The notes below the pieces were generated by a model. That model was not told where the DNA came from. It made no database searches and saw only the letters and a list, made by a program, of their open reading frames with translations. A stretch of 62,835 nt of DNA, filler included, from Globobulimina sp. (lineage: Eukaryota): NCBI GenBank assembly GCA_003354225.1. It is 33 parts of 33 records of this genome, joined end to end, with 100 filler letters (N's around TTAATTAATTAA, not from the genome) between each part and the next. Parts side by side here need not be neighbours in the genome. Positions count along the whole stretch, not along the records: positions 1 to 1,808 come from PIVH01011701.1; positions 1,909 to 3,716 come from PIVH01011702.1; positions 3,817 to 5,624 come from PIVH01011703.1; positions 5,725 to 7,532 come from PIVH01011704.1; positions 7,633 to 9,440 come from PIVH01011705.1; positions 9,541 to 11,348 come from PIVH01011706.1; positions 11,449 to 13,256 come from PIVH01011707.1; positions 13,357 to 15,164 come from PIVH01011708.1; 25 more parts are not named here. One strand, given 5' to 3'. Below, piece by piece: positions 249 to 32,333 of the stretch. Position numbers and translations under genes: made by a program. The stretch's first letter is position 1. Each line of letters starts with the position of its first letter.

Positions 249-1793
249 TCAGCAAACATTAAAACTTTTTGATTGTAAATTTTTAATTCCTTCTACAAAT
301 TTCCTCCAGTGATTGTGTGTTAACAATCTGCGGATTTCCATTTCGGCCTTTTGTGGTAATATAAAAAACTGATTTATGAATATGTTCAAACTAAACAACA
401 ACAAACAATCGTTTCGACAAAGTTTTTATTATTCAGATTCAAAACAGTCAGAAACATTACTAAAATAAACAAACCTCCGCAAAGAACTCCGCACTGATTT
501 CAAATGGTTGTTTTTTGACAAATCTCTCTTCCAATTCCGACTCAACATCTATTATCTGAATATTACATGCCATTCAATACATATTATTTTGTCTGATCGA
601 CTCTATTACTTAACATTTGTCCGGCTCTCATAAGAAATGTTGATAGCGAATGCAGCTTCCGGTCGAATAGACGTTTTTATAATATCTTTAGCCACAATAT
701 ATCTTTGCGTATTTGTCATTAAATTTTTAAATCTACGCAAAGACTGTAAAAATATCGCAATTTCATCGCACCTAAACACAAAAACAAAAATCTAATCCAC
801 AAAGCATACACTGTCCAGATACACATACCATGTTTGTGCTAAATATCTGTATAAATATTCTCTGCCTATTGCTGAATCCAAGCAAGTGGACAAATTCTTT
901 AAAAACGGCACCTCGCTGCCTTGAAACTGTTGTGTAATATCATTTAAATGTCCTTTGAGATTCTCTCCAGTGATTAATTGTGCCGCAAGCGAGAATATCT
1001 CATCCATCGCATACTTAACACCAAAATTATACTGCGACTTGAAATAATATGAAAAGGTTTGATGCATAGCTTGCAACATTGGGTCAAAATGGGTGATATT
1101 AATACCCATTCTTTGATGCACTGCGCCTAATGCTGATAATAAGGAATGTAAATCAATATTATCCGTAATTAAAAAGCGCATTAACCATCCCATCATTTCC
1201 AAATATCGCAAACTTACATTCTCAATCTTTTGCTCGTTGCTAAAATTAGATTTCATTACTTTTTTCATCTCATCGTTGGCTGATAACATTGTGAAGAAAA
1301 TAGAACATCCGATTTCCTGTACGTATCATGTCAGAATTCAGATTTTCAAATTGCAATATACAGAAATTACAGATCAGAAACGTTTAAGGGAAACACGGAA
1401 ACACTTAACCAATTGATCGGAAAGGCAGAGAGGATCGATATTTTCTTTCCAAAATGTCGCAGCGATTTTGCAAATACGACTTGAAATATATTTGCCGGTG
1501 ATGCCATTATTGACAAGTAAAAGTTTACTGTGTCTTTTCTGATTTGATGTAAGAGACGGGTTCAATTCTAATGATGGTAAGGGAGTTAAACATAGAAATT
1601 CTGATGCTTTTGTAGGCGATTTTGGCGGTGGTATTGGATGCATCACGTTATTCGAAGAAGATAATTCTGGTAAATTTGATGATCTTATTGCATGATGTTG
1701 AGGAGGTTGTAGTGATAACGAAGTATTATTCTCAGTGGTGTTAGGAGTGTCTGGTGCTTTGGCACGCTGTAAATTACAAGATTGGTTACCCAT
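249..1793 (-). CDS. N-acylated globin-RGS fusion protein, ~402 aa, 5 exons (1793-1410, 1316-829, 771-615, 555-475, 347-249)
   Basis: Four GT-AG introns give one continuous frame (1209 nt). N-terminus MGNQSC. Globin segment FWKENI..EIGCSIFFTML..LSALGAVHQRMGINITHFDPM. RGS segment CLDSAIGREYLYRYLAQTWCDEIAIFL..IRPEAAFAINIS..FFAEAEMEIRRLLTHNHWRKFV. Confidence 0.8.
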
Positions 1794-1808
1794 TTTAAAA
1801 TTAATTTT

Positions 1809-1908
1809 NNNNNNNNNNNNNNNNNNNNNNNNNNNNNNNNNNNNNNNNNNNNTTAATTAATTAANNNNNNNNNNNNNNNNNNNNNNNNNNNNNNNNNNNN
1901 NNNNNNNN
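1809..1908. other. Artificial contig linker (44 N + TTAATTAATTAA + 44 N), recurring every ~1.9 kb throughout the window
   Basis: Identical spacer with stops in all six frames separates ~1806-1808-bp contigs that decrease slightly in length along the window. Confidence 0.98.
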
Positions 1909-2829
1909 GTAATCGGAGTGATGCATTTGGATGCCAATGATTACCAAAACAGAATCGAAGAGAAGGAATGCACGGAACGCATATACACGAAAATCAGAGG
2001 AGATACGAAAAGAACATTTTTAACTTCACAAGAATATAATTCTCGAGTATCTGAGGAAAGATTGGTGCGTGTCTTGAATTCATTTGTTCATCGATATAAC
2101 AAAGTATATGTGCAGGGAATGGATGTTATTGCCGCTGGTTTGCTTTATGCAATGCCCGAATTAGATGCATTTGAGTCATTTGCAGTGCTCGTCAATACCC
2201 ACTTTCCTTTATATTTTCATAGCGACAAAACGGATAAGAATCATTTAATTGGAGCGTATGCGGGCTCATATTTAGCATGGGACATATTAAAAATATGTGA
2301 TTCCAAAATTTTTAATCACTTAAAACCATTACCGCCGCACGCCTATTTATTCCCTGTGGTTGCTTCATTCCAAGGCATCTCGCAGCCCTTTACAGAGCTG
2401 CAGAAGTTATGGGATTTTTTATTTTGTTTTGGCGTGCATTTAAATCCAATTTTAGCAGTGGCTCAACTTATTGTGAATTCGAAAGCAATTTTGAGTCAGA
2501 ACCCTGGCAAATTGTTGGCGGGGATGTTAGCACAAAGAAAGTGGATGAATCGGCAGTTAAATGCGAGTGCTGTTATTGAATGTGCCATGGATTTAATTAT
2601 TTTATTAAAAGACACTCGGCATAAACAATTATGGAAAGAAATCGCAAAACATGCAACGGATTTTGATACTGCGATTTCAATTAAAATTAAACATGATATG
2701 CTTTCAATGTCAACAGCAAAAATATCGTCATCGACAGCAACAAATCAAAATGTAAAAATACAAATTAATGATGCTGATCTTGAGGAAGTTGATATTTTTG
2801 AGGAGATTAATGAAGAAAAAATTCCTTGA
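1909..2829 (+). CDS. TBC/RabGAP-domain protein, Bub2/Cdc16-like, 5' truncated
   Basis: KIRGDTKRTF (IxxDxxRT) and YVQGMDVIAAGLLYAMPELDAF motifs, plus LWDFLFCFGVHL. Confidence 0.8.
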   Translation, partial: VIGVMHLDANDYQNRIEEKECTERIYTKIRGDTKRTFLTSQEYNSRVSEERLVRVLNSFVHRYNKVYVQGMDVIAAGLLYAMPELDAFESFAVLVNTHFPLYFHSDKTDKNHLIGAYAGSYLAWDILKICDSKIFNHLKPLPPHAYLFPVVASFQGISQPFTELQKLWDFLFCFGVHLNPILAVAQLIVNSKAILSQNPGKLLAGMLAQRKWMNRQLNASAVIECAMDLIILLKDTRHKQLWKEIAKHATDFDTAISIKIKHDMLSMSTAKISSSTATNQNVKIQINDADLEEVDIFEEINEEKIP

Positions 2830-2968
2830 TTTTAGCCATATTGTTTGCAAAATTAAATTGTCTCCTCGCACAAATGTAAAATTGTTTTTTTTTTGTTGAG
2901 AACGTGACATGCTAGAATTAGTAGTATATTATCACAAGGCAGCAGTGTGGATTTACGGATTTGTCCGT

Positions 2969-3661
2969 TTATTTCTTTTGTTTTGAATAATAAAATTCCA
3001 ATATTTTATCCCAATTCGTTTTTGTTCTATTCTGCACAGGAAACCCTGGATATTTCTCTTGATATTTGGTTAAATAATCCAACACATCATGTGTATAATC
3101 GGCGGCATAATCAAAACAAACAAAGTCCTGCCAATAATATTCAACAACTTTACTATAAAGCTCGTAATCCATTACATCATAAACATATAAACTATCCATT
3201 TTCATTAAATCCTCAATTGCCATATCATTGAATTCTGTTTTTAAACCAACCCATTCTCTGAATTGTTGATCAAATAAATATCCTTTATCTACACCATTAT
3301 TATTCATATTTATTTGTGCATTATCATTAAATTCAAAATGATCAGATTCATCAATGCAAAACTCATCATTTGGATCATTTAAAATATTCTGATATCCACT
3401 TTGTATAAACTCATATTTGAATATATGATTTATATCATTTTGAGACACTGATAATTGCCCAACTTGGGTCATTAATATATTCATCCATGGAAATAATGAT
3501 ACAAATGAATAATGGAATTTACGTAAATCATTTATAAATGCTTTCAAACGACCACGTAAATCACCAACAATCTTATAAAACGTAAATTGTTCAAATATAT
3601 CTGGAAAATGTTGCATTTCCTCAAACTTATTCCAGAGCAGTGCATTCACCGCATAATATCC
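2969..3661 (-). CDS. Last exon of a probable carbohydrate sulfotransferase-like protein
   Basis: C-terminal LYSKVVEYYWQDFVCFDY resembles the sulfotransferase family 2 terminal motif; AG acceptor near 3662. Confidence 0.4.
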   Translation of the reverse strand, partial: GYYAVNALLWNKFEEMQHFPDIFEQFTFYKIVGDLRGRLKAFINDLRKFHYSFVSLFPWMNILMTQVGQLSVSQNDINHIFKYEFIQSGYQNILNDPNDEFCIDESDHFEFNDNAQINMNNNGVDKGYLFDQQFREWVGLKTEFNDMAIEDLMKMDSLYVYDVMDYELYSKVVEYYWQDFVCFDYAADYTHDVLDYLTKYQEKYPGFPVQNRTKTNWDKILEFYYSKQKK

Positions 3662-3816
3662 TGTGCAAATTTATATAATTAAGCATAAAAAATAAAGGAT
3701 ATTATACATTAAAATANNNNNNNNNNNNNNNNNNNNNNNNNNNNNNNNNNNNNNNNNNNNTTAATTAATTAANNNNNNNNNNNNNNNNNNNNNNNNNNNN
3801 NNNNNNNNNNNNNNNN

Positions 3817-5624
3817 GTTGACAGTTTTCAGTTTCCAAGTTAATACATTTTTCGCAGTTGACGGCACAGCAAATCAGATATGGAACTAGTTTTCCATCCT
3901 CATCTTTCGCTGTTTCTGCATCAAAATAGACAACTGAAAATTTTAGTCTATATAATATCATGAATTGCATATTTATAATTACCATTAAATTTTTTGCTCC
4001 CTCCGAGTCTGGTTCCCTCTTTTGGTTCCTGTACTTGACAAAGATGTACAGACAGATCAACCTATAAATATATTGGATGATCAGGTAAAAGTAATATCAA
4101 AGTTATAGTTACCTCTTCATAGCAATGTGGACATGGTGATTTTATGTCGCAGTTATGTTGTTTGTCGTCTGTATACCTTACACAGAGGCAATTCTGACAT
4201 CTGTATCGTTTGGACACACACACCCTTTGAACATCATTTCCATGGGCCAAATAACAGCTGGGGTGCTTGAATGTGATATCGCACCTCTCACAAACACGAA
4301 TGATGACAGGATTTTCCATTGCCTCACAATTAGCTCTTTCACATTGAGGGCAGATGTCTATGCAGCGGTGGCGATTGGATTTTGAGTGTATGCTGTAGCA
4401 TCGGTGGCAAAAACTGTCATCTTTCCCAATGAAAGATTGCAGGTTCCATATCAAGTAGTAGTGTTTGCCGAACCACAGCAGAAACACTTGATCTTCTTGC
4501 CGAGGTCTCTCTGGTTCCCCGGTAAAAATGTGTTCATATTTTTCGTTCAAAACAACAATTTGTTTTTCATGACGTTCATTGAACAGATATTGAAAACTTT
4601 GTAGCTCATTTTCACCACATTCTTTTTCTGGGTCTACTCCAGCCTCTGCATACAAGCGACTGGTTATATTTTTTAGTTCGTGGCATTTCTGCGGTTCTTT
4701 GAAAAAGCTGGCTTTTTTAAGATCTTCTCCTTGATTCCTTAAACGGGTTATAAGTTCCCAAGCGGCAAGACACAGTCCGAGGCATCGATGGTCCAAGTTT
4801 CGGGGGTCAAAGATTCCTGTTCGTCTTTTTATGTATGAATCGAGATTTGCCGCATTTAATCTATAGCCAGAACCTTCGATGCTATCCACATGAATTACAT
4901 CAAAAGTGAGTGTTTGATCCAGGGCCAACTCATCTTTCGAAGACATTACACTGTCAATGTAGTTGAGAAGCACCAATGGTTCAAAGAGTTCAACTTTGAT
5001 AAGAGGCATGACAATAGGGGTGTCCAAAGAGTCACTCAGAACCTTGATTTGGATGAATCCCCCTTTTTCGACAGTTTTACGCATTAGTGATTCAATTACT
5101 TTGTTCAGAACTTCCAGGGCCAATCCAACTTCACACAGTCTCAGGGCTTTGGGAGTGAGCTTGAATGATTGTCGGGTCCTAATTGATTTGAACAGTTTTA
5201 GACCCGCTTTATCCACTATATCGCTTCCAATTTTTGTATAGAGCGACTTGGCGCTAGCTGTATCTAACAACAACTCAAGATCTTTCAAAATTTCTTCCTG
5301 ATTTCCTGAATTGTCATTGGGATCATGTTCATCCATCTTATGTATTTTTAATTCATTTTCATTGGGAAGCCATTCGTCACACTGACCACATTTAACAGCG
5401 TCTTCTTCTGGGGGGCTATGTGTTTCTTTATGGCTTGACAGTTCGGCTTTCTTGTCGAAACGAGTATCACATCCCGGGTGTGGGCAACTGAGGTATGCGA
5501 GGTCTCTGGTGGGACCTGGAATATCGTGGTCATCCATTTCATGTCGCCGCACTTCTTCTTTTGATTCGAACCATTCTCCGCAAATGTTACACATGGAGTT
5601 TTTCTGAACTTGATCTGAGGCTTT
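3817..5624 (-). mobile_element. Polinton/Maverick-like protein-primed DNA polymerase B, N-terminal part, with upstream C2H2 zinc fingers and two short introns (4112-4062, 3982-3934); truncated
   Basis: Three C2H2 fingers; DHRCLGLCLA, LLWFGKHYYLIWNLQSF..FCHRC..HRC and a Cys-rich tract typical of Polinton pPolB N-termini; spliced product reaches ExoI-like VVYFDAET..VPYLIC..CEKC. Confidence 0.7.
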
Positions 5625-5983
5625 NNNNNNNNNNNNNNNNNNNNNNNNNNNNNNNNNNNNNNNNNNNNTTAATTAATTAANNNNNNNNNNNNNNNNNNNN
5701 NNNNNNNNNNNNNNNNNNNNNNNNAGTTGCTTTGGCGAGCACATCTCTCCCCAGCGCTCTTCATTGCTAAGGGAAGATTTACCGAACGTTGTCACACTCG
5801 GTTTGTCGATCAGACTCTCCTTCGACTTGACGAGCAACTTGCCACCTATAGATTTGAGCTCTCCGTCAAGTAGGACCTCATGCGTGCGCTTCGCTGGTGA
5901 ATGCTCCAATTCCTTGGTTGCCAGGTGAAGTCTTCTGTCGCCCCCTTGGAAGAAGCCAAGCTTCAGCGTTCTATTGGCTTTGC

Positions 5984-6781
5984 TTAAGGAGCTCTCAAAG
6001 GCAGCAACATCAAAATCGCACAAAATAGCAATAAATATCCGCACTTGCAAAAACAGCCACTTTTCCTCCTCTTTTTGTCTCTAATCACCGCATTATGACT
6101 ACGCATTGATATATGTCCAGGAACAGAGGAAGGCGCAGTGTCGTAATGCATTGCTCCATTTGCAGGTTGTGTGTGCGTTGGCTGTCTGTCATAAAGTAAA
6201 GTTGTTTGCTGTGTTGGTCGAGTTATGTGTGGCATTGTAGGTGCCGACGGTTTTATGCTTGCATTTGGATTGTATGCGTAGACAGTATGTGGCGCATTGT
6301 ATTCCTGTGTGTTACTGTCATATTTTGGAGCATGGCTAACTGGCATTTGTGGCTCTTCATAGATGGCTTCTTCCTCACTGGAATCACTCGAATAGTCCTC
6401 ATTGTGATATATTTGAAGGGGTGGAACACTCTGAGTGCTATTACGTGTTTTTCTCATTTCAATTGCGTGTTTTTTTAATGATGCTGGTAATTCATTAATA
6501 TCTGATTCTGGCATTGTGAGTAATGTTTGTATTGTGTTATCGTATCGTTGTCGGGATGTTCGTCGCTGTATCAATTTAGTTGTAAGTAGATGGTGAAATG
6601 GATAAATTGGTTTTAACTCTTTTTGAAGCACGAGGATTAATGGCGTTGTTATTTTCATTGCTTGTTGATAATAAATCTTTCGATTTCCTTTTCTTTCCTC
6701 TTTTCTTTTTCTTACGCTTTGCCTTTTGGACGTAAGTTGGCGTTGTAAATTGTAATGGGCCGGAAAATAAAATACATACAT
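5984..6781 (-). CDS. Hypothetical Pro/Thr-rich protein ending in a Cys-rich hydrophobic segment; 3' end possibly chimeric
   Basis: Open frame; true start probably the internal MPESD; GC content rises downstream of ~6000. Confidence 0.35.
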   Translation of the reverse strand: MYVFYFPAHYNLQRQLTSKRQSVRKRKEERKGNRKIYYQQAMKITTPLILVLQKELKPIYPFHHLLTTKLIQRRTSRQRYDNTIQTLLTMPESDINELPASLKKHAIEMRKTRNSTQSVPPLQIYHNEDYSSDSSEEEAIYEEPQMPVSHAPKYDSNTQEYNAPHTVYAYNPNASIKPSAPTMPHITRPTQQTTLLYDRQPTHTQPANGAMHYDTAPSSVPGHISMRSHNAVIRDKKRRKSGCFCKCGYLLLFCAILMLLPLRAP

Positions 6782-6848
6782 TGTTTGACATTATGCAGGG
6801 AGTACTAGCGAGTTTTTAGAGTTTAATACAACTACAAAAAACATCTTA

Positions 6849-7532
6849 TCATATCTTTGCATTCAACTGCTTTACAGAATCATTATTTAGATTCCAATCA
6901 TATGGAACATATTCTATTTCATATTTTTCTTTCATTGCCAATCTTACATCATTCCTCAACTCACAATTTGAATAATTCCATATAAAATACAACAACTTAT
7001 TCGCCTCAAACCCATTACCATTATTTCCATCACTTTTGTTATCATAAAATAACTCAAAATCCTCTTTATACCATTCAAATATTTGCGATAACTTAATTTT
7101 CTGATTAATTTTATCAATATTTACATTCCTATCTTCATTGACAAACTCTACCGATAAATCATCCAAATCCTTCACATCGACAACAAACGATTTCAACTCT
7201 GGACATCCAATGCTTGCACAATTTATAGCACAATGAATCCGTGCATCTGCGAATTTGCCTCTTATGATATCGTGCTCCAAATGGTCCAAACTCACTGTAT
7301 TGCCATCTAAAGCATACAGTGGCGCCTTGGCGGAGTTACACATTGGTTTTGCTGCAATGATATATCAAAATATGCCAACTTATTTACTGCAGCGGCACTG
7401 TATGGCAACAGATATTGTTTTGATATATTATCGCTGTACAAGGGTCCAAGCAGTACCTTGAAAAAACCCCATCCACTGACAGGCTCTAAGCGTGATTGCA
7501 CATTTTTGACTGATGATATTAGAGAATGATTG
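6849..7532 (-). CDS. DUF547-family protein, 5' partial
   Basis: SLDHLEHDIIR..DARIHCAINCASIGCPEL..LSQIFEWYKEDF..YDWNLN motifs. Confidence 0.85.
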
Positions 7533-7632
7533 NNNNNNNNNNNNNNNNNNNNNNNNNNNNNNNNNNNNNNNNNNNNTTAATTAATTAANNNNNNNNNNNN
7601 NNNNNNNNNNNNNNNNNNNNNNNNNNNNNNNN

Positions 7633-9405
7633 ATCAATAGCTTCTTCAAATATATCCTCTTTAAGTATATGTTCTGGATTATCCAACGCACTGCGTGCCA
7701 CTTTGGCGATTCTTTCAAACATATCCGCATTCAAATTAATCTGTGCCGGCGATCGATCATCGCAATATTTGTTGTATAGCGCATTGAATTTTCGTTTTGC
7801 ATCGGCTCTCCATTCCTGTGCTTCCAATATAAACAATAAATTATTTATCGTCAGATTGCTGGTCATAAACATGCGTAAACAATACATCGTCATCGGATTA
7901 TCAATAATTGCTTGCAACGAACTTAATTCCTTAAAACTCTCCTCATCCACACTCGATTCGCGTGCTTCTGATTTGACAAAATCGGCAAACGACCGATGCA
8001 CTCTTCGCTCAATGACACTCGTTCGATGCTTCTCTTTCACATCGATTTCCCACACCCGATCACCGGAAGTTATCTGTGTGATTTTCCTGGACGCCATCAT
8101 TCCCAACGCTTTTCCCGATTTCTTATTACTGCCGTCATTATAACTCGCATTGCCACCGCCAAAAATGTCCATGATCCGCTCGCATAGCGCTTCCACGATG
8201 AATAGCTCGTCCTTATCCTCCATCAGATTCTCCACTGTCTGCGCCCCGCCCAATAAGCCAATGACGCCCGCCATCCGCATCAACAATTCCGTCAAACGCG
8301 CGATGGGCTGCACCACCAAACTCATCGTCGACGCCGTGACAAACAGCGTCGACGTGGCGAAGATCAATATGGCAAATAAGGTCAGACACATTCCCAACGC
8401 TGCTTCCTCCAAAACGTTGCTGCGAATATCGAACTGGATATAATCTGTACTGGTATCGGCGTCCATGTACAAGGTCCACATCTCGATATTCCTGCGATCC
8501 GCGATGGTGTGTTGATCGTTGTATAACTCGACACCTCCGATATTGATATATAATAAGGGCACTCCCACCGCCTGCAAGATATGGTACGAAGCCTGGAAAT
8601 CCAAACCGCCGTCGATGCAGTTTTTGAATAAATAGGCGCAGGTTGTGGCTGCGTCGGCGTATGAAGCACCGGAAGGGTCCATCCACGGCAACACCAACAC
8701 CAACACCAGGACCAAGACAATGACTTTCTTTGTCACTGCTTCCGACACAATCTGGCCCACTTTGGAAGAGCCCGCATCCACTACATTCTTCTCAGTGTCC
8801 TCCTCGTCTTCGACTTGAAAGAATTTGAAGACGCGCAACACCCGCAATAAGCGGCTAAACCGTATCATCCGAATGGCCTTTAATGCCACTGCAGAACGGC
8901 CGGATTTCCCTGCTTTGCTGGCTTGCGTATTGGCGATATTTATGTCGCCGTCGCCTGCTCCGAATAATGCTAATAATAAAGTCAAGTCCGGGATCATTGA
9001 GACCATCGCAATGAAATCTAACCAGAACCAAAAGGACAGGAAATAACCACGGCGTACTAACGAGGCTACTATCAATTCGATGAAAAAAAACCAAAATACT
9101 AGTAATAGGATAATATCTGTGCTAATGTCGATGCTTTGCGGCAGGAAAGCGATGGTGAAATCGTACGCTAATAAGGAAGTTATAGTGGCCACTATGGACG
9201 CGAACATCCAGAGTCCTCCATCCAGGAATTTCTCGCAACGGCGCGCCTTATCTGGCTTAATAACTCGATCTCGGAAACTCGATCTCTGACTGTCTGAATC
9301 TGAACTTGTCGGTGTCGCTTTTTGTTGGTTTTTGGGTGTGGCGATGTATGCTAATTTACGACCAAATTTGTTGTTGTTGAAGAACGTAAATAGAGATTTG
9401 GGCAT
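7633..9405 (-). CDS. Ion-transport/voltage-sensor-like membrane module + HAMP-like helix + RGS domain, 3' truncated, intronless
   Basis: S2 FFFIELIV, S3 FWFWLDFIAMVSMIPD, Arg/Lys-periodic S4 KAIRMIRFSRLLRVLRVFK, further TM helices, LVVQPIARLTELL, then RGS motifs LQAIIDNP..LRMFM..NNLLFILEAQEW..YNKYCDDRSPAQINL..IFEEA. Confidence 0.8.
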
Positions 9406-9817
9406 TTTTGCGTTTGATGAGGTTTAAAAGATATGTCTGTNNNNNNNNNNNNNNNNNNNNNNNNNNNNNNNNNNNNNNNNNNNNTTAATTAATTAANNNN
9501 NNNNNNNNNNNNNNNNNNNNNNNNNNNNNNNNNNNNNNNNTCGTGCATTATTAAATTGTTTTTTTTTGCGATTTTGACGTCAGTAATTCTTTTTTTTTTT
9601 TTTTTAATTAAATTTTTTGTCAACTGTTTTTCGGTTTAATTAGAAAATTAGAGATACACTACAAAAAAACACTAGCAAGTTACTTTCGATTGTGTGTAGA
9701 GCATCCTTGCCTAACACACAAGCCATATATCAGAAAATTGAAAACTAATATAAATCTAAATCTAATCGCGTCACAATTGCTCAACAATCAATAGAACTCG
9801 AATCATCATATATATCA

Positions 9818-10725
9818 ATGGCATCCGCAACAGAGGAGAAGAACAAGAGCAACACCACCACCACCACAAGGAATGGAGATGTGAACAACGCAGAGGACAA
9901 TAGCAGCTCATCCTCATTCGATGTGAGTAAAATAATTGAGAAATTATTGAATGTACGATCTAAACGACCCGGGACATTGGTAGAGTTAAACGAAAATGAC
10001 GTCGAGACCTTATGCCAGACGTCGCGAACCTTATTTATGTCGCAACCAATGTTTTTGGAGTTGGAGCCACCGATCAAAATAGTTGGCGATATCCATGGCC
10101 AATATTACGACTTATTGCGGTTGTTCGAGTATGGCGGCTATCCGCCCGATGCAAATTATTTATTTTTAGGCGATTATGTGGATAGAGGCAAACAATCGAT
10201 AGAATCCATCTGCTTATTGTTGGCATATAAGATCAAGTACACTGAGAATTTCTTCATATTGCGAGGCAATCACGAATGTGCCTCTATTAATAGAATTTAT
10301 GGCTTTTACGATGAATGCAAACGAAGGTACACTCCTCGTCTATGGAAGAGATTTACGGATTGTTTTAACTGTTTACCCGTTGCCGCCATTGTGGCCGATA
10401 AGATTTTCGCAATGCACGGCGGCTTATCACCCGAACTTAAATCATTTGACCAAATCAAAAAATTAGCGCGACCCACGGCGGTGCCGGATACAGGTAAGTT
10501 ACATAAATAATATATAATATAATTCCTCTCTTTCTGATTGCGATATTGCGCGCATTTCCGCACTCATTCTACATAGGTTTACTTTGCGATTTATTATGGG
10601 CAGACCCGGAGCAAATAGTGGGTTGGGGAGAGTCGGATCGCGGCGTGTCTTATATATTTGGCCCCGATGTCGTGGATTCGTTTTGTAAACGCTTTAGTAT
10701 TGACTTAATATGTCGAGCGCATCAG
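9818..10725 (+). CDS. PP1: Ser/Thr protein phosphatase 1 catalytic subunit (intron 10494-10576), truncated at a chimeric junction
   Basis: GDIHGQ, GDYVDRG and RGNHE motifs; exon 2 [22 protein letters not shown] stops before the expected VVEDGYEFF. Confidence 0.95.
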
Positions 10726-10922
10726 ACATATTAGCTGGTGAAATCTACATTAGTATCGAAAGGGTAAAATTTAATGCAAGATTGTTTAATGTGAAGATGC
10801 AAGATGAACTACATCGGGTTATGATACATGGCTTGCTGCACCTTGCTGCATATAATGATTCAACAAAATCCGAGAAAGAGATAATGAGGAGAAAGGAAGA
10901 TTATTACTTATCTTTGCGATAA
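10726..10922 (+). CDS. ybeY: Bacterial rRNA maturation RNase YbeY, C-terminal fragment
   Basis: [28 protein letters not shown] (HGLLHL metal-binding motif). Confidence 0.85.
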
Positions 10923-10941
10923 CATAAGCAGCTTGTTAAGT

Positions 10942-10957
10942 TGTTTCACGTGGAACA
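10942..10957. promoter_or_regulatory. Bacterial parS site
   Basis: TGTTTCACGTGGAACA; reverse complement TGTTCCACGTGAAACA matches the parS consensus; lies just upstream of mnmG. Confidence 0.85.
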
Positions 10958-10963
10958 TTATTT

Positions 10964-11348
10964 ATGTTTGAAGAATATGATATTATAGTTGCCGGAGCTG
11001 GACATGCTGGAAGCGAAGCTGCTGCCGCAGCAGCTAATATGGGCTCCAGGGTAATGTTGGTTACAATGAATATGGGTAATATTGCTCAGATGTCATGTAA
11101 TCCTGCTATGGGAGGTATTGCTAAAGGACAAATAGTAAGAGAAATTGATGCACTTGGTGGATATTCCGGAATAGTTACTGACAGAACTATGATACAATTC
11201 AGGATGCTTAATAAATCAAAAGGTCCTGCTATGTGGAGCCCGAGAGCACAAAGTGATCGAACGAGATTTTCTGAAGAATGGAGACTGGAGCTGGATAAAT
11301 TAGAAAATCTAGATTTTTGGCAAGACAAGGTAACAGAAGTAATTGTTG
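10964..11348 (+). CDS. mnmG: tRNA uridine-5-carboxymethylaminomethyl modification enzyme MnmG/GidA, Bacteroidota-like, 3' truncated
   Basis: [55 protein letters not shown]. Confidence 0.95.
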
Positions 11349-11448
11349 NNNNNNNNNNNNNNNNNNNNNNNNNNNNNNNNNNNNNNNNNNNNTTAATTAA
11401 TTAANNNNNNNNNNNNNNNNNNNNNNNNNNNNNNNNNNNNNNNNNNNN

Positions 11449-11899
11449 TGGCGAAGATATATCAAAAATTGCACCAACATTAGGATTTACGATTAAAACC
11501 TTAGAATATTTAGAATATAAATTAAACATTTGGGACGTTGGCGGTCAAGAAACAATTCGTTCATATTGGAAAAATTATTATGAATCAACAGATGGTGTAA
11601 TTTGGGTAATTGATAGTGCGGACAAACGAAGGTTGGAATTATGTAAAAAAGCACTACATTCGTTATTATCTGAAGAGAGATTGGCCGGGGCCACGTTATT
11701 AATCTTTGCAAACAAACAGGATTTAAAAGGTGCACTCACAAAAGACCAAATTGTTAATGTCTTAGAGTTAAAAAAAATGGATAAACAAAACAGGCATTAT
11801 TTTGTGAAAGATTGCTCTGCTGTCACTGGGCAAGGATTGGAAGGTGGCGTTGCTTGGTTGGTGAAAGACATTGCATCAAGAATGTTCTTATTGGATTAA
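11449..11899 (+). CDS. ARL2: ADP-ribosylation factor-like protein 2, 5' truncated
   Basis: [62 protein letters not shown]. Confidence 0.9.
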
Positions 11900-21786: not shown

Positions 21787-21858
21787 TTATTAAAAAGTTT
21801 TTAGTGGAATAAATTCGTTAAAAAAACCACTCCACCTAACCCAATTTAAGCACATCAC

Positions 21859-22796
21859 ATGTCAACCAGAGCAGAGTCAGAAGACAGCAATATGTACAAA
21901 GGACAATACGAATGGATTATTAAAGGCAATAAATTAACACAAATGATTAAAGCGGATAATGGACAGAAATTTGCATCACAGACATTTGAAATGTGTTCAT
22001 TAGATTGGTGTATTGAAGCATGTCCCAATGGCAATAGAGATAATAATGTTGGTTCATTTAAAGTATTTTTAAAATTATTATCCTTACCACAACAAGGAAA
22101 TAAAATAATTATTTGCCGGAGAATTTATTGTAAAGAGTTGAAGTCAAGTTTTACGAATATCTCATCCTATAAAAAAGAGAAAAGCAATGGATGGCCATAT
22201 TATACATTGTCATTAAATGAAGTGAGAAATAATAATCTGAAACAAATAAGTTTTATAATTGAAATAAGAATATTACGAATTATGAATGAATCATCTTTTG
22301 GCACTACAATAATTTATGAGAATGACATATATTTTGATAAAGCATTTAATAAACAACTATTTAATTGGATCATTGATGCAAAATTAATTAAAAAAATGAA
22401 AAATTCGTTAAATGGAAAACGATTTGAATCACCAATTTATAATAAAATGTGGTGTCTAAAAATTGCACCAAATGGAGGTAAAACAGCACGAAAGGATTAT
22501 TTTGATGTTAGTCTTCAAATTTGTGCATTTCCACAAAATATCTCTAAAATAACGGTTCGATTTAAAATAAATTGGAAAGAAATGCAAATAAATACAGAGA
22601 GAACAAAAGATTTTGATATTAATGGCGGTCATTCCTGGCTTTGGTCAGATTCAACAGAGAATATATTCTCATTTTCAGATTTTCAGAATTATTATTTAAA
22701 TGGAATGGAATTTGAAGTAAATCTAAATATTTTAGCAATTTATGATAAAAATGGAGGGAAAATCAATAAAAATGAATGGAATAAATACATAAAAAA
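21859..22796 (+). CDS. Tandem MATH-like domain protein
   Basis: Two repeats of W-I-I..F-S..WC(I/L)..PNG..(V/F)xL. Confidence 0.65.
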
Positions 22797-22896
22797 NNNN
22801 NNNNNNNNNNNNNNNNNNNNNNNNNNNNNNNNNNNNNNNNTTAATTAATTAANNNNNNNNNNNNNNNNNNNNNNNNNNNNNNNNNNNNNNNNNNNN

Positions 22897-24704: not shown

Positions 24705-24804
24705 NNNNNNNNNNNNNNNNNNNNNNNNNNNNNNNNNNNNNNNNNNNNTTAATTAATTAANNNNNNNNNNNNNNNNNNNNNNNNNNNNNNNNNNNNNNNN
24801 NNNN

Positions 24805-26612
24805 TCAATGATAAGATATAGAGTTTCGACATCAATAAAAGGATCTTTTTATCTCTATCTTCCTTAATATCAATGTTTAATTTCTCAATTTCTTTGTCAA
24901 TCTTCGTATTATGTTTGAATTTAATATTTATCCTTTCGTGGTGTATGCCATTACGCAGCAAAGTAATGACTTTCCCGTAGCCGCTCTTCTTATTTATAAA
25001 TGTTTGATAGTTCTTAACTTTGACCGTTGCATTTGCTTCATTGTCATCATAAAACTTATACGTTTCTTGCAATAATATTATGTCCGGCTTTTTTGTAACA
25101 ATTATGAAATGTAAATGCGTTCTAACATTAATTGAGAAGCCATCCACGTTCCATTGACATACTAATAGCCCCTTCTTGCGACTTAGAAGCATATCATTTC
25201 TTAAATCATAATCGTCTTCAATCTCATCTAAAATATTGTCACTGTCTTCAAAAACATTCGTTTCTTCCGTAGAAACGTTCGTTTCTGCAATAAAATCAAT
25301 TTTTATCTCATTACATTTGTCGTTTTCGTTACTTTGTTTGTTTGAGCTTTCGCCCAAATTCTCGTTATAAAATTGTGTGCAATCAAACAAATCATCGTCG
25401 TCATGCATAATATGCGTATTATTACAATTCTTCTCATTTAAAACAATATCCTCATCGCGGGAGAAGTCACCGCAATGATTCTTAAAATGACTGTGTGTTT
25501 TCTTGGGGTCATTCATCATAGATTAGAATGTAAAATTTGATGATTCGGCCCCGTTTTTATTCATATTATATTGAGAAATGTTATAGTTCTCAATCCCAGA
25601 CAGTTTAACTCCATCTGGGTGTTTCTTATAAATGCTGCCACTGTCAATTAACTTGTATGCGATGCCTTCATTCCATCCGCAATAAGTCAGGATTTTATTT
25701 GCCTCTTCAAAGGTGACTATGGCGCCATTTTTCTGATTCATTCTCAATATCAAATTCTCAATTTTCTCTTTTTGGCGTTTCTTCTCAAAGACGGCATTGC
25801 TAAATAAGGGGTTTTGCTTATTTCCATTGTTGTTGTTATTAGTAACCCCTTTATCAATTTCGTCTATCTTTTCTTCGCTCTGCTTGTTTGACTGTGCGTT
25901 TTCTGCCATATTTGTGTCTGCGTCATGTTGAGACAAATATGGTGTTTCTAGATTTAATTCGTGCATTAAATCGTCAATAATGTGCTGTTTAAAAGTCTCT
26001 AAATCATCATTCCATTTCGCGACGATCGCCTTCCAATCTGTCAATAATATTTCTCCGTTTTTATCGTTTTTGTATCTTTTTTTTAATTCTATTTTTATAT
26101 TCTTGTTATAATTACAGGTATTTATATGCCATACAATCGGTTTGTTAATGCCTGTGACTATTTCTTTGTTCTTAAATTCATCCAATTTACGTTTATTTGA
26201 CCATACAATTCTTTTGTTTCTTGGTGCATTTGTTTCAAATGCCGACCAATAGACTTTCTGCCCTGCAACTTTTCTAATTTTCTGATGCATCCATTCTAAA
26301 TCAATAATTCCCGACGACGTTAATAACAGAGATTGACTTATTTTCTTCGATAAATCTCCAAAACGTTCGCACGTTATTTTAAATCCTTGATATTGTTGAT
26401 TCACAGCAACTAATATCTCTTTTGCAGCGCGATCGTCTTCAAACGCTCTGCTTACATTAAATTTGGGTGTAATGAAGGCATTGTTGCACACATATTTGTA
26501 TAAACGCGGTGCTTCATATCGTCTTCGACTAATACTTATATTGAATTCCGTGCCCAATGCACGTCCAAATGCAAAATCCCTTCGACTTCGTAGGTCTTTC
26601 AATCGGCACATA
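24805..26612 (-). mobile_element. Non-LTR retrotransposon fragment: ORF1 (26612-25523) and ORF2 start (25519-24805) with APE endonuclease
   Basis: LVCQWNVDGF..KKPDIILLQETY APE motifs; ORF2 ATG 3 nt after the ORF1 stop; intronless. Confidence 0.7.
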
Positions 26613-27134
26613 NNNNNNNNNNNNNNNNNNNNNNNNNNNNNNNNNNNNNNNNNNNNTTAATTAATTAANNNNNNNNNNNNNNNNNNNNNNNNNNNNNNNN
26701 NNNNNNNNNNNNTTCATCCAATCACAGAGATGGCCATCGGATATGACAATGATAACTGTTTTGTAAATTCGAATCGATATATATTAAGAGATAATTTGTT
26801 GAAGCGGAAATTTGAAAATATTACTCATGATAATGCTAATGCTAATCCTAACAAAATAAAAGTCATTATATTCTGAGATTGATCATGAATTGTTTGTAAT
26901 AATTTATGTTTGTGGTTATAAGCCGATCAGTTTCCAAAAAAATTACGATAATATTTTTTTCACTTGTTCTGCACCATAATATTTGATAAAACAAATAAAC
27001 CAAATGTGAAGAATTAAACATAAAAAATTGAACGAGAAAAAAAAAACACAATTATGCATGCAATAAATAATTCTGACAAAAACAAAAACGTTAACGAATT
27101 TCAATAATCATCATAATTAAAATAAACCATATTG

Positions 27135-28508
27135 TCATAAATGAAGAGCTGTCAATCCATAATATTCATTACTTGAATTATTTGGATAAAAGGAGGAATA
27201 CAACAAACCAAAATGTTTTTTTCTTGCTTTCGTACACGACGCATAAAACAGAGATTTGCTATGAATTAAAATATTATTATTATGCTTTTGTGACTGTCGA
27301 ATGTCCATAGACTCCAAATACACATTATACTGCAAATCAATCCCAACCAAAAACAGAATATTTGGGTTACTTTGTGAAACCCATAGATTTTGTAACCGAT
27401 TATACGGTGAATTCAAATCCATTTTTAACATATACCATTGATCCACATTGATATCATAACATTCAATGCCATCCTTAATATCCTCTCCGCCAATGATGAT
27501 TTTATGATATTTATCATGGTACACACAACAACTATTTTGCCGTGCGGATTGCATACATTTTAGCCATATCGATCTATCACAATTCAATGCATACAACTCA
27601 CCATAATTCACCTTCTTTCCTTGCCGATGTCCGCCTAAAATGGCTATAAATTTATCCTCCACCATAGTCGCACAGGTATTGAAGCGCATTCTTTTCAAAT
27701 TCCGGCTGTGAACATTCCATTTCCATTCATTGCAATCCGTGTCTGAGTCGGATAAATTCAATGAATACAATAAGTTATAGTTACATTCATCATATTCATG
27801 TCCGTTGTGTTGCGCTGTTAAGCCATTCATAGCATATAAGATTTGGTTATTTGTGTTGTAGACAATGGAGGGATTGGAGGTAGGCTGTGGGAATTGTGGC
27901 AATTCAAAGTTATACGCATGCGAATAGCGATGGATGTCATCGTAGACACAGCAGCGATTAAATGCAGTTAAATGACACTCATTGGATTGCTTATAGTTAT
28001 TATAACCGCCAATGGAGATTATTAAGGACCAATTGGAGGAGGATAGATTTTGTTGATAATCATCATATTTCTCAAGCAAATAATTGTTTTTCTGTAAGTG
28101 GAAAGGTAATGAGACATGATTTATGATGCATTGTCCGGGGTTTTTGCGATTCCATTGTTGGATTATATCTTTTTTGTCCAATTTCTTTTGTTTAAAGTTA
28201 TTGAAATTCGGATCTGCAAAAATGATCCGTTGTTTGTACAGTTTTTGTTTGGAGATGTTAAATAGTTTCATAATCTCATATTGCGATGAATTGGTTTCGA
28301 TGGAGACTAGAAAAGTGTGGCTGTCTAAACCATAAAATGTATAATAAATTATTATTAAGTTGATAATGTCAGCTGGGATACACAATACGTTCGACGAATT
28401 TCTTTCTGATGAGGAGATCCATGAAATATAATCGCTGTTAGAACATGATAGACTGACAAATCCATGGATTAGTAATTCTAAATTAAACCGCCGTGGGTGC
28501 GCATTCAT
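27135..28508 (-). CDS. Kelch-repeat protein with an N-terminal LLIHGF..IPADIINLIIIYY motif
   Basis: IGGY, LGGH and IIGG..ECYDINVDQW kelch repeats. Confidence 0.7.
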   Translation of the reverse strand: MNAHPRRFNLELLIHGFVSLSCSNSDYISWISSSERNSSNVLCIPADIINLIIIYYTFYGLDSHTFLVSIETNSSQYEIMKLFNISKQKLYKQRIIFADPNFNNFKQKKLDKKDIIQQWNRKNPGQCIINHVSLPFHLQKNNYLLEKYDDYQQNLSSSNWSLIISIGGYNNYKQSNECHLTAFNRCCVYDDIHRYSHAYNFELPQFPQPTSNPSIVYNTNNQILYAMNGLTAQHNGHEYDECNYNLLYSLNLSDSDTDCNEWKWNVHSRNLKRMRFNTCATMVEDKFIAILGGHRQGKKVNYGELYALNCDRSIWLKCMQSARQNSCCVYHDKYHKIIIGGEDIKDGIECYDINVDQWYMLKMDLNSPYNRLQNLWVSQSNPNILFLVGIDLQYNVYLESMDIRQSQKHNNNILIHSKSLFYASCTKARKKHFGLLYSSFYPNNSSNEYYGLTALHL

Positions 28509-28619
28509 AGAGTGATCTANNNNNNNNNNNNNNNNNNNNNNNNNNNNNNNNNNNNNNNNNNNNTTAATTAATTAANNNNNNNNNNNNNNNNNNNNNNNNN
28601 NNNNNNNNNNNNNNNNNNN

Positions 28620-28840
28620 TCCTTGTAATACTCCATTTATTAAATCGTATGCAGAATCAATGAAAGATTTATTTTTGATTGCACTCTTTGAATTATCATA
28701 TATTGCACATAAAATTTTGCAGAGGTTAGGGGAAATATTTTTATTTTTTAATAATTTAAAAACCAGACCTTTTCTCTATACAGTATCAAAAGCTTTACTT
28801 ATATCTAAAAAAGCGCAGTACAGTGGTTTTTTATTTTTAA
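28620..28840 (-). pseudogene. LINE reverse transcriptase remnant
   Basis: Manual translation KPLYCAFLDISKAFDTV*RKGL..NGVLQG, with an in-frame TAG at the usual Trp position. Confidence 0.75.
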
Positions 28841-29241
28841 TTATCAATGAGCGAATGTACAACATCTAAACAACCATCGTAGTATTCGTGGTTGCCTGTA
28901 ATTAGTATGACATGCTTGAATTTGCGCGAACAATCTTTAATAAATTCTTTGTATTCTTCAGATGCTGGGCGTCCAATATCACCCAGTAATGCTAAAATAG
29001 GCGCTTTAACCTCAATTTTGGGCATTTTATTGAATGCATTTGGAAATTCCAAGTGAATATCTGATGCAATTTGTATTGCATTTTGAATGATTGTAATTCG
29101 TTCTTGTTTTTCTTCATTTGATATTTTAGATTCTGATTCCGTTTCAACTCCTTGTTTTTTGTCCTTTCTTTCTTTGAAATAAGATCTCAATAAGTCTTTT
29201 TTGAAAAGATCTCTCTGTGCCATGCATGCAGTCAAAATCAA
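28837..29241 (-). CDS. Calcineurin-like metallophosphoesterase, N-terminal fragment
   Basis: IASDIHLEF, LLGDIG and TGNHEYY motifs; ends abruptly at the RT remnant. Confidence 0.75.
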   Translation of the reverse strand: MILTACMAQRDLFKKDLLRSYFKERKDKKQGVETESESKISNEEKQERITIIQNAIQIASDIHLEFPNAFNKMPKIEVKAPILALLGDIGRPASEEYKEFIKDCSRKFKHVILITGNHEYYDGCLDVVHSLIDN

Positions 29242-29629
29242 AAATGTGTTGTAAATGCCAAAAACAGATTGTTGTTTTTAAGTACATATAAAAGTACAAT
29301 TGACTACTGCCAATTAAGTTCGGAGCTTAAACAATCAAAAGCATGTCACCTTTACAGTCACTTCTAGCCGAGATTGGATTTTTAAACTACGATAGCGGTT
29401 TACATACGAAACATCTATGCAATATAAGCATATGCTATCTTTGTTTAAAAGCAGTCTCAAAAACAACAGGCGATTTTGCAATAAAAATAAAAAAAAAAAC
29501 AAAAAATAAAATAGTATATATAGTTATTACACGTCGTGTGGAGCATATTGGGATGGATTTAAATCATTATTACCAAACCATATTTTATTATTTTATTATT
29601 GGAGTTATTTGGGACTTGGAGAGGTCAGC

Positions 29630-30040
29630 ATATTGTCATTGAGGCCTCCTTGATCCAGGCGAGCTTAATGGATTGGGACGACAATCAACCGATGGATTCT
29701 AAAAACGAGTCCGATGTGGATGACAACCAAGAATATAATGACCCGGCAGATGGAAAAGGCGCATTTTTCATCATTGATGTTGGCGGTCAAAAATCTGAAC
29801 GCAAGAAATGGATCAACTGTTTCAACCAAGTGACTGCCGTAATTTTCGTGGCCAGTTTAAGTTGTTACGATGAAGTGTTATATGAAGATTACAGCACAAA
29901 CAGTATGACGGATCAATTGGAATTATTTGATAAAATCTGTAACACCGACGCGTTGAGCGAGACGTCAATGATATTATTCCTAAACAAAAGTGATTTATTT
30001 GCGGATAAAATCGTAAATGTCCCTTTAACAATTTATGGCG
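29630..30040 (+). CDS. Heterotrimeric G-protein alpha subunit, internal fragment
   Basis: [47 protein letters not shown]-loop and normal C-terminus absent. Confidence 0.9.
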
Positions 30041-31054
30041 ACGGCAAATTAAAACATGTAAACAAATGGAATGCGAAAATAATATCGTTATTGGCAGATT
30101 CTTTTTTTCTTGGAATTTGTCAGAAAATTATTTTAATTTTATCCTGTGATGATAACCAATTTTTGCGTACGATCCGAACAGAAAATTCTGGGATGCTGAC
30201 CACAAATTATATGCCTGCGTTGCTTTGATTTTATTGGATTTTATATCCCTATTTGTGCCAAAAGGAGGAAGAAGAAGAAGAATTCGAAGGAGAGCCATGC
30301 GCATTTTCCATCGCTTATGTCGCTCCATATATGTCTGCCTTCACTGTGATGCAATGTTTTATGTTGATTTCATCAGAGTTTGTGTCGTCTAATGTACGGC
30401 GTCTAATTTATTGTGATGATAGCTTANNNNNNNNNNNNNNNNNNNNNNNNNNNNNNNNNNNNNNNNNNNNTTAATTAATTAANNNNNNNNNNNNNNNNNN
30501 NNNNNNNNNNNNNNNNNNNNNNNNNNTATTTTCTAGGCTTTCTTCTTGTTTTAAAGGCGGATTTCTTTGTTCGACTGTTGTCATGATGCTAATTGATTGT
30601 TGTTAGATTTCTCTTTATTTCTACGAAAGAAAGTAAAAGATGTGACAACTGACGGATTAAATTGACAAAATGGAGAGCTAAGTAAACTTAAAGTTTTTTT
30701 TAATTATTTATTTGTTAATGCATTTGTCAAACGAAACCAGAGAAAAAAATCAAAAAACCACCAAGAGTGTGATGCTGCAAAATCAAAACCAGAATATTTA
30801 ATCAAATACGTTTTTCGTTCTTTTGTTTTTAGTTAACGGACAATTGTAAGAACGTACAGTCTTGCGATATTCAGATCGAACATCGTTTATCAGATCAAAA
30901 AGAAAACTATATCAAAAGGAGTGTTTTTGTACGTTGAATATATTCATAATTTCAGATCGAACAATACGAAAATCACTAATAACTACACACATATCATACA
31001 CACACGAATAATGTATTATTAATAAATGAAACTGTTCCACCATCATCCATACAA

Positions 31055-32333
31055 TCACAGTGTCATTTCGCTATGACTCAACGTACTCTGTGCCATTTCA
31101 GTTGATCTGTGTGTTGTTACTTTTGTATGATAACGATTAAAAGTCTCAGTTGTTTGAAATCTATAGCTCGCATCATGCAAAGTCCATAAAATGTCAAGTG
31201 CCACATCATCAAAAACATGCAATAATTCCTGATTAGAACTTGTATATTCTTTCTCAAAAACAGAGTACAATTTATTGCGCATTTCACCAGATATATTAAT
31301 CGGATACATTGCTGCAACCATCACATACTTATTATATAACCCTTTCATTGCATTATAGATTGGCTGCTCTCTAAATTGCCCCTCCGATGATGTCAATATG
31401 TCGGTCATTACAACTCCAAATGGCAAACGTATATTAATTTCATTATTAAACTGCGTAGCGCACGCTTTGGAAAACAATGAATGTATTGACTCTTTTCGAT
31501 TTAATATACCGTTATATACATATTTACATTGCACCAATTCAGTAATAAATAGTAGCGATTCTGTGGCAAACTCAGTGATTAAATAGTTCATAAACAAACG
31601 AAATCCCATTTTATCGCTAATGATCTCAACTAATGGCGTATTAGTGTTAATATTTGTGTTTTGTGAGCTTTCTGTGAAGACCACATCGAAAGCGGTATTT
31701 CCCACCGGCGAATAATTATAATTTCGGGGTGGTTTCTTGGGAAAATGCATGAAATTTGCGCTCAGTTTTGATTTGATTGGAATCGATCGACTGATCCAAA
31801 AATTTCAAATTTCAGACATGTCCACATAATCATACCTGTTTTTTGTTGTTTTGTGAACAAATAAATAACGGATATAATGTGGAGGTTAATGCTAACAAAC
31901 TGTTGATAAAAACAGCATTAATGCTATAGGTTAAATATTCAATTCGGACAAAGTTTGTATTATTTTGGCCTTTAAAATAAAAAATAATTTCTTCAAATAA
32001 ATAAATGGTGAGAACTATCCATAAAACAATGTTTTGGAATTTAAATTCATTGCGAATACCAAATCGGTCAATGACTTTATTAGATTTACAAAATATAAGC
32101 AAGGCAATAAACAGCGGTATTGATACAAATGAAAAGTGAAAAATATGAATATATAAATTGTTATTCGCATTAATGAAAATTTGTAAGATTGGTCCAATGC
32201 ATATAAATAGTAAATACATTGGAAATAAAAGTTTGAATAAACGATAATTATTTGCATATTTGTGCTGATTTAAAATAAACCAATTTTCAGCATTTTTGCG
32301 ATTTATCCTTGTTTGCCATAATTTGGATGCGAA
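31055..32333 (-). CDS. Multi-pass membrane (7TM-type) RGS protein, 5' truncated
   Basis: TM helices with IDRFGIRNEFK, followed by RGS LVEIISDKMGFRLFMNYLITEFATESLLF..YPINISG..DASYRF. Confidence 0.8.

Follow-up and report, generated by a model that had tools for sequence, protein, structure and literature searches.

Three genes that join an RGS domain to a globin, to a voltage sensor and to a 7TM-type module lie in the window analysed here, a stretch of 62,835 nucleotides from a Globobulimina sp. assembly. They raise the question of whether this foraminiferan, a marine amoeba of one cell, controls its G proteins through sensor-RGS fusions, and whether it does so in place of GPCRs. All three fusions reported by the first-pass annotation are real. 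The window consists of 33 separate contigs without physical linkage, and the N-linkers confirm that the fusions and a G-alpha sit each on a contig of its own. We favor, with moderate confidence, the reading that the sensor-RGS genes form separate expanded families, each coupling one input to the GTP-hydrolysis step, beside GPCRs and not instead of them. Each family would act on the G-alpha off-step, alongside ordinary GPCR-like genes; for the fusion proteins we infer sensing, coupling and GAP activity.

The globin-RGS gene (249..1793, minus strand) was modelled with five exons (1793-1410, 1316-829, 771-615, 555-475 and 347-249) encoding 402 amino acids, with a low-complexity N-terminus, a 3/3 globin and an RGS domain; exon 2 (829..1316, minus strand) encodes, in a single open frame, the bulk of the globin together with the beginning of the RGS domain. 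Exact splice joints were found for all four introns (93, 57, 59 and 127 nt) in runs X1 and X6, which come from two studies and of which X1 is presumed to be an RNA run; run X2 covered a poly-A stretch only. Pfam gave no match on four exon pieces of the window gene. The family profile searched against the PDB recovered a globin (E 5.6e-16) and an RGS domain (E 9.6e-16), and both domains of the window gene were also assigned via paralogs. Gene model, spliced introns and family profile together confirm the fusion. At least 28 contigs match the globin exon. A protein search with one divergent member returned nothing, and an alignment query returned four sequences. On contig C7623 a G-alpha and a globin-RGS were considered as a fusion and rejected, as stops separate them and they are neighbours only.

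The proximal His F8 is kept in 16 of 16 globins, the window gene included. The window globin has Val at distal E7 and Met at CD1, and lacks the Tyr-B10/Gln-E7 pocket that only 6 of the 16 possess. The family profile's best PDB match is 3s1i, of the single-domain flavohemoglobin type; its best hits are of this type, and the Protoglobin model matches below cut-off only. Like globin-coupled sensors, these proteins join an N-terminal 3/3 globin with His F8 to a signaling output, but the flavohemoglobin-type match, the RGS output and the expansion set them apart. Neuroglobin, a G-alpha GDI according to the excerpt of PMC4842972, likewise is a globin acting on G-alpha, as is predicted here. In globin-RGS, a predicted soluble heme protein, the adjacent RGS domain would be tuned by the state of the ligand (O2, NO or redox).

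The 7TM-RGS member (31055..32333, minus strand) is 5' truncated and has one intron, the acceptor of which is not fixed. Its RGS domain stands (Pfam, E 1e-8), whereas the seven segments do not lie within the window: only the last four are present (32333-31836, minus strand), and the number seven rests on 17 aligned family members. Family models found no match on the 7TM part. Among the 7TM rows, equivalents of RGS4 E83, E87 and R167 each occur in 10 of 11, N128 in 11/11, N88 in 5/11 and D163 in 3/11. AtRGS1 and Trichomonas TvRGS, as described in PMC3718340 and PMC3865004, similarly have seven hydrophobic segments and a C-terminal RGS domain with the E83, E87, N128 and R167 equivalents. The likeness is one of segment count and RGS residues, and the AtRGS1 system differs in having one RGS1 against dozens of paralogs here, where the assembly also holds more than 100 G-alpha loci and GPCR-like genes. 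7TM-RGS would act like plant RGS1, as a GAP controlled by ligand or trafficking.

How far do these families extend beyond the window? In the assembly RGS-family contigs number at least 162, and RGS is joined to 7TM, globin, VSD, ammonium transporter, cNMP and PH/FHA inputs, so that the proposal of diverse inputs in one lineage holds for more inputs than were originally noted. The "very large family" foreseen from the window is correct in kind and wrong in scale: three genes per 60 kb would imply ∼3,500 genes, and this extrapolation was rejected against the 162 contigs found. At the density given by these 162 contigs the probability of at least three RGS genes per window is ∼4e-4, which equals 0.46 windows expected genome-wide, or 2.7 such windows if there were 300 RGS genes. 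The three fusions in one window are a chance cluster. The largest class is 7TM-RGS, with 22 of the 80 contigs whose module is visible and 22 more that score best on the RGS model of the clade. In the RGS tree clades follow the input for globin (10/10; 97/84), ammonium transporter (Amt; 5/5; 100/100) and 7TM (10/11; 95/91), and the RGS domains of VSD-RGS require three changes. E87 and N128 equivalents are kept in all ten globin and all five Amt rows; N88, D163 and R167 are absent from most of these.

Metagenome scans for the Amt-RGS family found no relative, and the family is therefore shown in this assembly only; an Atlas search with the Amt RGS domain returned nothing beyond generic RGS clusters, under 0.9. 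By inspection the transport-site residues are kept. The top PDB hits of the Amt domain are 6eu6 (E 1e-22) and 8qj3 (E 2e-20), which we take to be kinase and cyclase fusions of Amt. These bacterial proteins likewise join Amt to a C-terminal signaling domain, whereas Amt-RGS is eukaryotic and its output is RGS.

The VSD-RGS gene (7633..9405, minus strand) is a single ORF of 591 amino acids. Pfam matches to Ion_trans (E 7.4e-9) and RGS (E 9.7e-8), together with 22 homologs at 52-81% identity, the best from Bolivina argentea, bear out the annotated gene in 3'-truncated form, the contig end removing the last RGS helices. Voltage-sensor helices S1-S4 (aa 49-198; 8812..9261, minus strand) carry Asp140 in S3 and K176, R179, R182, R185, R188, R191 and K194 in S4; of 52 RGS-type rows in the module alignment, 48-50 have Arg or Lys at each of five S4 positions. 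In the model (pLDDT 80.8; a first model was poor, with pLDDT 56) TM5, a beta-rich domain and TM6 follow (8248..8811, minus strand, by model secondary structure). The small beta-rich domain (strands at aa 284-326) is presumed to be extracellular, and TM6 is continuous with a long helix that reaches aa 386. No pore loop is recognisable between TM5 and TM6, and in the whole-chain search the Ion_trans match ends at profile position 109 of 241. The closest structure to the sensor is that of Ci-VSP (VIA Z 10.1, rmsd 3.6, 130 residues), with Nav1.7 tied (Z 9.9); Foldseek returned no match at E<=0.001 for either VSD-RGS model.

This six-helix module is common to VSD-RGS and VSD-cyclases: its profile hits proteins that carry cyclase domains with E values of 1e-33 or lower. 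Among 116 module relatives scanned, 31 had RGS and 26 a cyclase, a ratio biased by a profile derived from RGS-type sequences of foraminifera. The class III cyclase domain is missing from the window protein and from full-length homologs, which carry RGS in its place. In the module tree 21 of 22 cyclase rows lie apart from 34/34 RGS rows (SH-aLRT 96). VSD-6TM-RGS is a sister family to the protist voltage-sensor cyclases, with its S4 charges intact. Such VSD-nucleotide cyclases are described from ciliates, Plasmodium and oomycetes (PMC10651576, PMC12223298; reportedly also Weber 2004). In our alignments they share with VSD-RGS homologous S1-S4 and TM5/TM6, the S3 Asp and the S4 arginines; they differ in their output domain and in the side of the tree on which their modules fall. 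The excerpt of PMC10651576 also states that voltage control itself was not demonstrated for a recombinant VSD-cyclase. Ci-VSP and SLC9C1, like the apparently poreless VSD-RGS, join a sensor to a non-channel output, but VSD-RGS adds two membrane helices and a loop domain before the output, and that output is a G-protein regulator.

The RGS domain of the window protein (aa 496-591; 7633..7920, minus strand) is truncated and lacks the alpha4-alpha5 loop, which is absent in 23/23 aligned VSD-RGS domains; E87-to-N128 spacing is 36-39 in all 23, versus at least 40 in 33/33 other RGS domains. In the VSD-RGS model, residues 520-548 form a single helix. A homodimer model of the Bolivina homolog scored 0.56 versus 0.00 for the best of three controls. 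At least 68% of contacts were shared between runs, and pLDDT was ∼60; the model was built without alignment input, and the cytoplasmic part alone is confidently placed. The mark used was reached by 21/30 solved homodimers and 0/23 monomers and, among eukaryotes, by 17/29 homodimers and 0/30 monomers, although eukaryotic dimers without an older relative pass in 1/7 only. The best contacts between chains pair alpha4 with alpha5/alpha7 and alpha3 with the C-terminal helix. The model supports a fold that may be completed by domain swap with a second chain. A literature match on swaps concerns engineered G-alpha swaps.

Within the apparently poreless module S4 movement would pass through TM5/TM6 and the long helix to the RGS domain. 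If that domain folds only as a domain-swapped dimer and S4 drives it, membrane potential would set G-alpha binding or GAP activity. In the window clade Asn replaces E83 and E87, N88 and N128 are kept, and the homolog has Asn at D163 and Gln at R167; judging from these replacements at the GAP interface, the window VSD-RGS may be a poor GAP. A second foraminiferal clade has lost N128. Such losses fit the idea that the RGS domain of VSD-RGS, and perhaps of Amt- and globin-RGS, is an effector or scaffold through which activated G-alpha regulates the attached module, as some RGS domains elsewhere without GAP activity are now scaffolds (PMC3971589); the retained transport site means that Amt could be the regulated part. 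We nevertheless think this unlikely: N128 is found in 17/21 and E87 in 18/21 database VSD-RGS, the VSD module offers no recognisable pore or enzyme for G-alpha to regulate, and the sister proteins place it upstream of an output enzyme.

Do the three fusions share a host? The assembly is mixed: nematode Srsx models also match its best three 7tm_1 hits, and one window contig carries PP1 joined to a GidA ORF. Moreover, GC3 is 0.55 in VSD-RGS versus 0.25-0.33 in the other two fusion genes, as would suit a grouping of genes from different organisms. Yet VSD-RGS is 81% identical to its Bolivina argentea homolog, the globin-RGS family also has Bolivina homologs, the 7TM gene nests within the assembly's own 7TM-RGS clade in the RGS tree, and each of the control genes ARL2, PSME3 and CBP3 is present in a single close copy. 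On these grounds an artefact of mixing is very improbable and a common host likely. Inflation of the counts by a second close species was considered and rejected.

The G-alpha of the window is genuine by its profile match (E 2e-39, positions 184-275 of 333) but not an intact gene. The scrambled fragment (29563..30381, plus strand; switch II to NKxD at ∼29738-30033) lacks P-loop and switch I and lies between frameshifted multi-TM pieces with 94% DNA identity to L078 and 80-86% to L137, and it is therefore a chimera or pseudogene. We rejected it as partner of the fusions. Elsewhere in the assembly there are ∼112 G-alpha contigs, and the best 30 loci retain the switch I Arg in 23, the RGS-contact Gly in 29 and the catalytic Gln in 22.

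In plants control is exerted by 7TM-RGS, and the first-pass annotation had tentatively extended that logic to this organism, with RGS rather than GPCRs in control. Host G-alphas would then self-activate and sensor-RGS would be the main receptors, GPCR-like genes being minor or signaling otherwise. The 162 RGS contigs do outnumber the ∼35 host-like GPCR loci found, the 7TM class is the largest, and exchange is fast in the bikont G-alphas tested (PMC3865004). However, Pfam, which would overlook divergent GPCRs, gave 23 class C matches above the cut-off, some of them bearing an ANF_receptor or another long ectodomain, and 9 cAMP-receptor-like matches; G-beta and G-gamma genes are present, as is a Ric8 fragment, from the host or from another organism. 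B. natans furthermore provides a case against canonical GPCR signaling being amorphean-only (PMC3971589). A purely plant-like, GPCR-free logic is thus unsupported, and we judge the self-activation scheme rather improbable.

Lineage-specific RGS radiations are already published, with 229 genes in Naegleria and 47 in Ectocarpus (de Mendoza 2014, PMC3971589), and 34 (table) or 39 (text) in B. natans. The general idea of RGS with diverse inputs is also in print (PMC3971589, PMC3865004), and PMC3971589 lists cNMP//RGS, RGS//FHA, HAMP//RGS and RGS//Globin; its supplementary figure text holds no Ion_trans//RGS, Ammonium_transp//RGS or Globin//RGS order. Those radiations resemble ours in combining many RGS, input domains and G-alphas with class C and cAMP-type GPCRs (35 G-alpha, 12 7tm_3 and 8 cAMP in B. 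natans), and differ in that no foraminiferan was sampled. Our literature searches found no VSD-6TM-RGS, ammonium-transporter-RGS or expanded N-terminal globin-RGS family; Anantharaman 2011, Bradford 2013, Weber 2004 or supplementary file 1 of PMC3971589 could mention them.

Known voltage sensors outside channels are few, namely phosphatase, exchanger and cyclase in the excerpt of PMC10651576, and VSD-RGS looks like an undescribed direct wiring of membrane voltage to G proteins. Tentatively, and with some doubt, we extend the favored reading of separate sensor-RGS families to VSD-RGS as an old, widespread protist family in which S4 would drive an obligate swapped RGS dimer, with foraminifera adding heme-gas and ammonium inputs that read sediment O2/NO and nitrogen. 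If true, a voltage sensor tied to RGS would give G proteins a direct input from membrane voltage and might serve as an engineering part, and swapped dimers occurring naturally would extend the well-studied RGS fold to a new form. Globin- and Amt-RGS are candidates for the sensing of oxygen and nitrogen gradients by benthic foraminifera, a presumed ecological link.

We favor a reading in which each sensor-RGS family lets its input set the rate at which G-alpha is switched off, in parallel to GPCR input, and in which, we infer, the fused proteins both sense and act as GAPs. The fusion of a voltage-sensor domain (VSD) to RGS proposed in the first-pass annotation (window 7633-9405, minus strand) was borne out by one open reading frame, cut off at its 3' end, and by 22 homologs of 52-81% identity among 8,000 candidates scored. 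S4 has a basic residue at each third position, conserved in both RGS-type and cyclase-type relatives, and the modelled sensor aligns with that of Ci-VSP over 130 residues (Z 10.1, rmsd 3.6). A profile of the six-helix membrane module, built from six assembly pieces, matches 3,213 representatives; among 116 relatives scanned from the best 150, 31 carried RGS, 26 cyclase and 5 phosphodiesterase domains, and in the remainder no output domain passed the thresholds applied. A quick tree built on 62 modules, after removal of 19 rows that were close or short, split them in two (SH-aLRT 96): 21 of 22 cyclase rows fell together, opposite every one of the 34 RGS rows, a single cyclase on a long branch and six rows with no label. 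A module with one in-frame TAG and no output domain also occurs elsewhere in the assembly (L138:3461-5209), with output-less relatives in the database (P0027, P0028, P0033, P0034).

The RGS domain of this family has a shortened loop: 36-39 residues separate the alpha4 Glu from the alpha5-6 Asn in all 23 aligned VSD-RGS domains (exactly 36 in 17), against at least 40 in 33 of 33 other RGS domains. Since alpha4 and alpha5 also merge into one helix in the structure model, a swapped RGS dimer is predicted, and modelling supports it. The two-copy model of the Bolivina homolog (240-668) scored 0.56, whereas the highest of three controls scored 0.00; at least 68% of contacts agreed between runs, and pLDDT was about 60. 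In calibration, 21 of 30 solved dimers reached the mark but 0 of 23 monomers did; for eukaryotes the counts were 17 of 29 dimers and 0 of 30 monomers, and 1 of 7 among eukaryotic dimers lacking an older relative. The best contacts of the model link alpha4 in one chain with alpha5 and alpha7 in its partner; in ordinary RGS domains such contacts form within a single chain.

The position equivalent to RGS4 E87 is Asn in the clade of the window gene, which would count against GAP activity there; Glu is kept in 18 of 21 database rows. We regard reversed or scaffold roles of the RGS fusions as rather unlikely. In a second VSD-RGS clade of the assembly (L084, L083, L043; two copies, DNA identity 78-86%), Ser replaces N128.

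The globin-RGS fusion (249-1793, minus strand) likewise holds. Its five exons encode 402 amino acids, all four predicted introns are present as exact joints in two sequencing runs from two studies, a single contig joins the globin exon to that of the RGS, and in intronless paralogs one frame encodes both domains. The family profile fits a single-domain globin of the flavohemoglobin type about as well as RGS2, and one clade of the RGS tree unites ten globin-family RGS domains. His F8 is retained in 16 of 16 globin rows (one misaligned RGS-only piece excluded) and Tyr-B10/Gln-E7 in 6 of 16; E7 of the window protein is Val. On another contig (L139:3-2128), a globin-RGS gene is preceded on its own strand, at a distance of about 160 bases, by a G-alpha gene, which makes the two candidate partners.

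Outside the window, an ammonium transporter (Amt) is fused to RGS, with a phase-0 GT-AG intron between the two in three contigs and an intronless junction in three others. Amt sequence adjoins RGS in 7 of the 15 contigs matching the RGS part (L033:1-2400, L107, L110, L164, L166, L167:347-1962 and L168), and by inspection the residues of the transport site (His, Trp, Phe and Asp) seem to be preserved. Metagenome scans found no relatives outside the assembly.

Two further window features were only partly as first described. The 7TM-type gene (31055-32333, minus strand) has an RGS domain and the last four of the seven hydrophobic segments typical of its large family, and its intron acceptor position is not fixed. 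The stretch within 29563-30381 (plus strand) is G-alpha sequence, but it is limited to profile positions 184-275 and lies between frameshifted parts of an unrelated membrane domain, which rules it out as a usable gene. Elsewhere, a multi-pass membrane domain without annotation, matched by 11 contigs, is fused to GTPases: G-alpha in two (that of L137:3-4085 without switch motifs) and Ras-like domains in two others (L137, L201, L203 and L207 in all). In L055:1-3192, G-alpha sits in an open frame of more than 1,000 residues, preceded by a GRDP-like region and a hydrophobic stretch.

Genome-wide, scoring 150 of 166 candidates gave at least 83 Pfam RGS matches, which fell on 80 contigs. Inputs among these were the 7TM module (22), globin (11), the VSD module (2), the Amt clade (4), upstream cNMP domains (one) and PH/FHA (one); 22 more scored best on the 7TM-clade RGS model with no input visible. 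The cNMP-binding domains precede the most canonical RGS seen (L133:1424-4767), and the PH-RGS-FHA protein is at L116:157-2214. The globin exon query matched 28 contigs, RGS not being visible in some, and the 7TM-type RGS query at least 65 (150 of 181 scored). The union reached at least 162 contigs, some of them fragments of one gene. At such densities the three RGS genes of the window, earlier taken as a measure of family scale, are a chance cluster.

An RGS-versus-GPCR census confirms many RGS inputs, but class C and Dicty_CAR matches are also present. We counted 26 matches to 7tm_3 (23 over cut-off), 9 to Dicty_CAR, 2 to 7tm_2 and 20 to 7tm_1 (10 over cut-off, partly foreign), beside at least 130 G-alpha matches, spread by hand count over about 112 contigs (121 of the 282 candidates were scored), one Ric8 fragment, a piece of G-beta and a tandem pair of G-gamma genes ending in CaaX (L214:863-1683). 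The class C GPCR-like genes L153, L154 and L156 differ in ectodomain (PMP repeats, ANF_receptor, and an unassigned region with a Cys-rich end). A plant-like logic with self-activating G-alphas (PMC3865004; also in the accessible part of PMC3718340) is partly compatible with input-set switch-off; as a full account we give it a low probability.

The window joins 33 contigs of about 1.8 kb by linkers, from an assembly of 48,370 contigs (70.2 Mb). We take the host to be a foraminiferan because the named homologs come from the foraminiferan Bolivina argentea. Foreign DNA is present, the best three 7tm_1 matches also fitting nematode Srsx models; three control genes each have one close copy, and we consider it very improbable that the genes come from different organisms. 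At 9541-11348 a PP1 gene is joined to a GidA/MnmG frame on one contig, possibly a chimera with bacterial DNA. A LINE-type reverse transcriptase (42241-43494; RVT_1 E 1e-23) and a zinc-finger frame (4062-5624), without match to family models and presumably resembling transposon DNA polymerase B, may both be foreign. Two paralogous frames on separate contigs (44860-45681 and 50275-51399) are, we assume, dioxygenase-like.

Radiations of RGS whose architectures are specific to lineages, RGS//Globin among them, have already been described in the available part of PMC3971589, so the general idea of RGS control extended to diverse inputs was known; the sensor-RGS genes of the window are real, but the inference drawn from them was over-read. 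The architecture list in that part contains no Ion_trans-RGS or Amt-RGS fusion, and since Pfam often misses the sensor module, VSD-RGS may hide among its TM-RGS counts. VSD-cyclases are described in PMC10651576 and PMC12223298, whose accessible text makes no mention of RGS. VSD-RGS, Amt-RGS, N-terminal globin-RGS and swapped RGS were absent from the literature searched, which included few subscription papers. The specific architectures, VSD-RGS foremost, thus appear undescribed so far, and they are open to direct testing.
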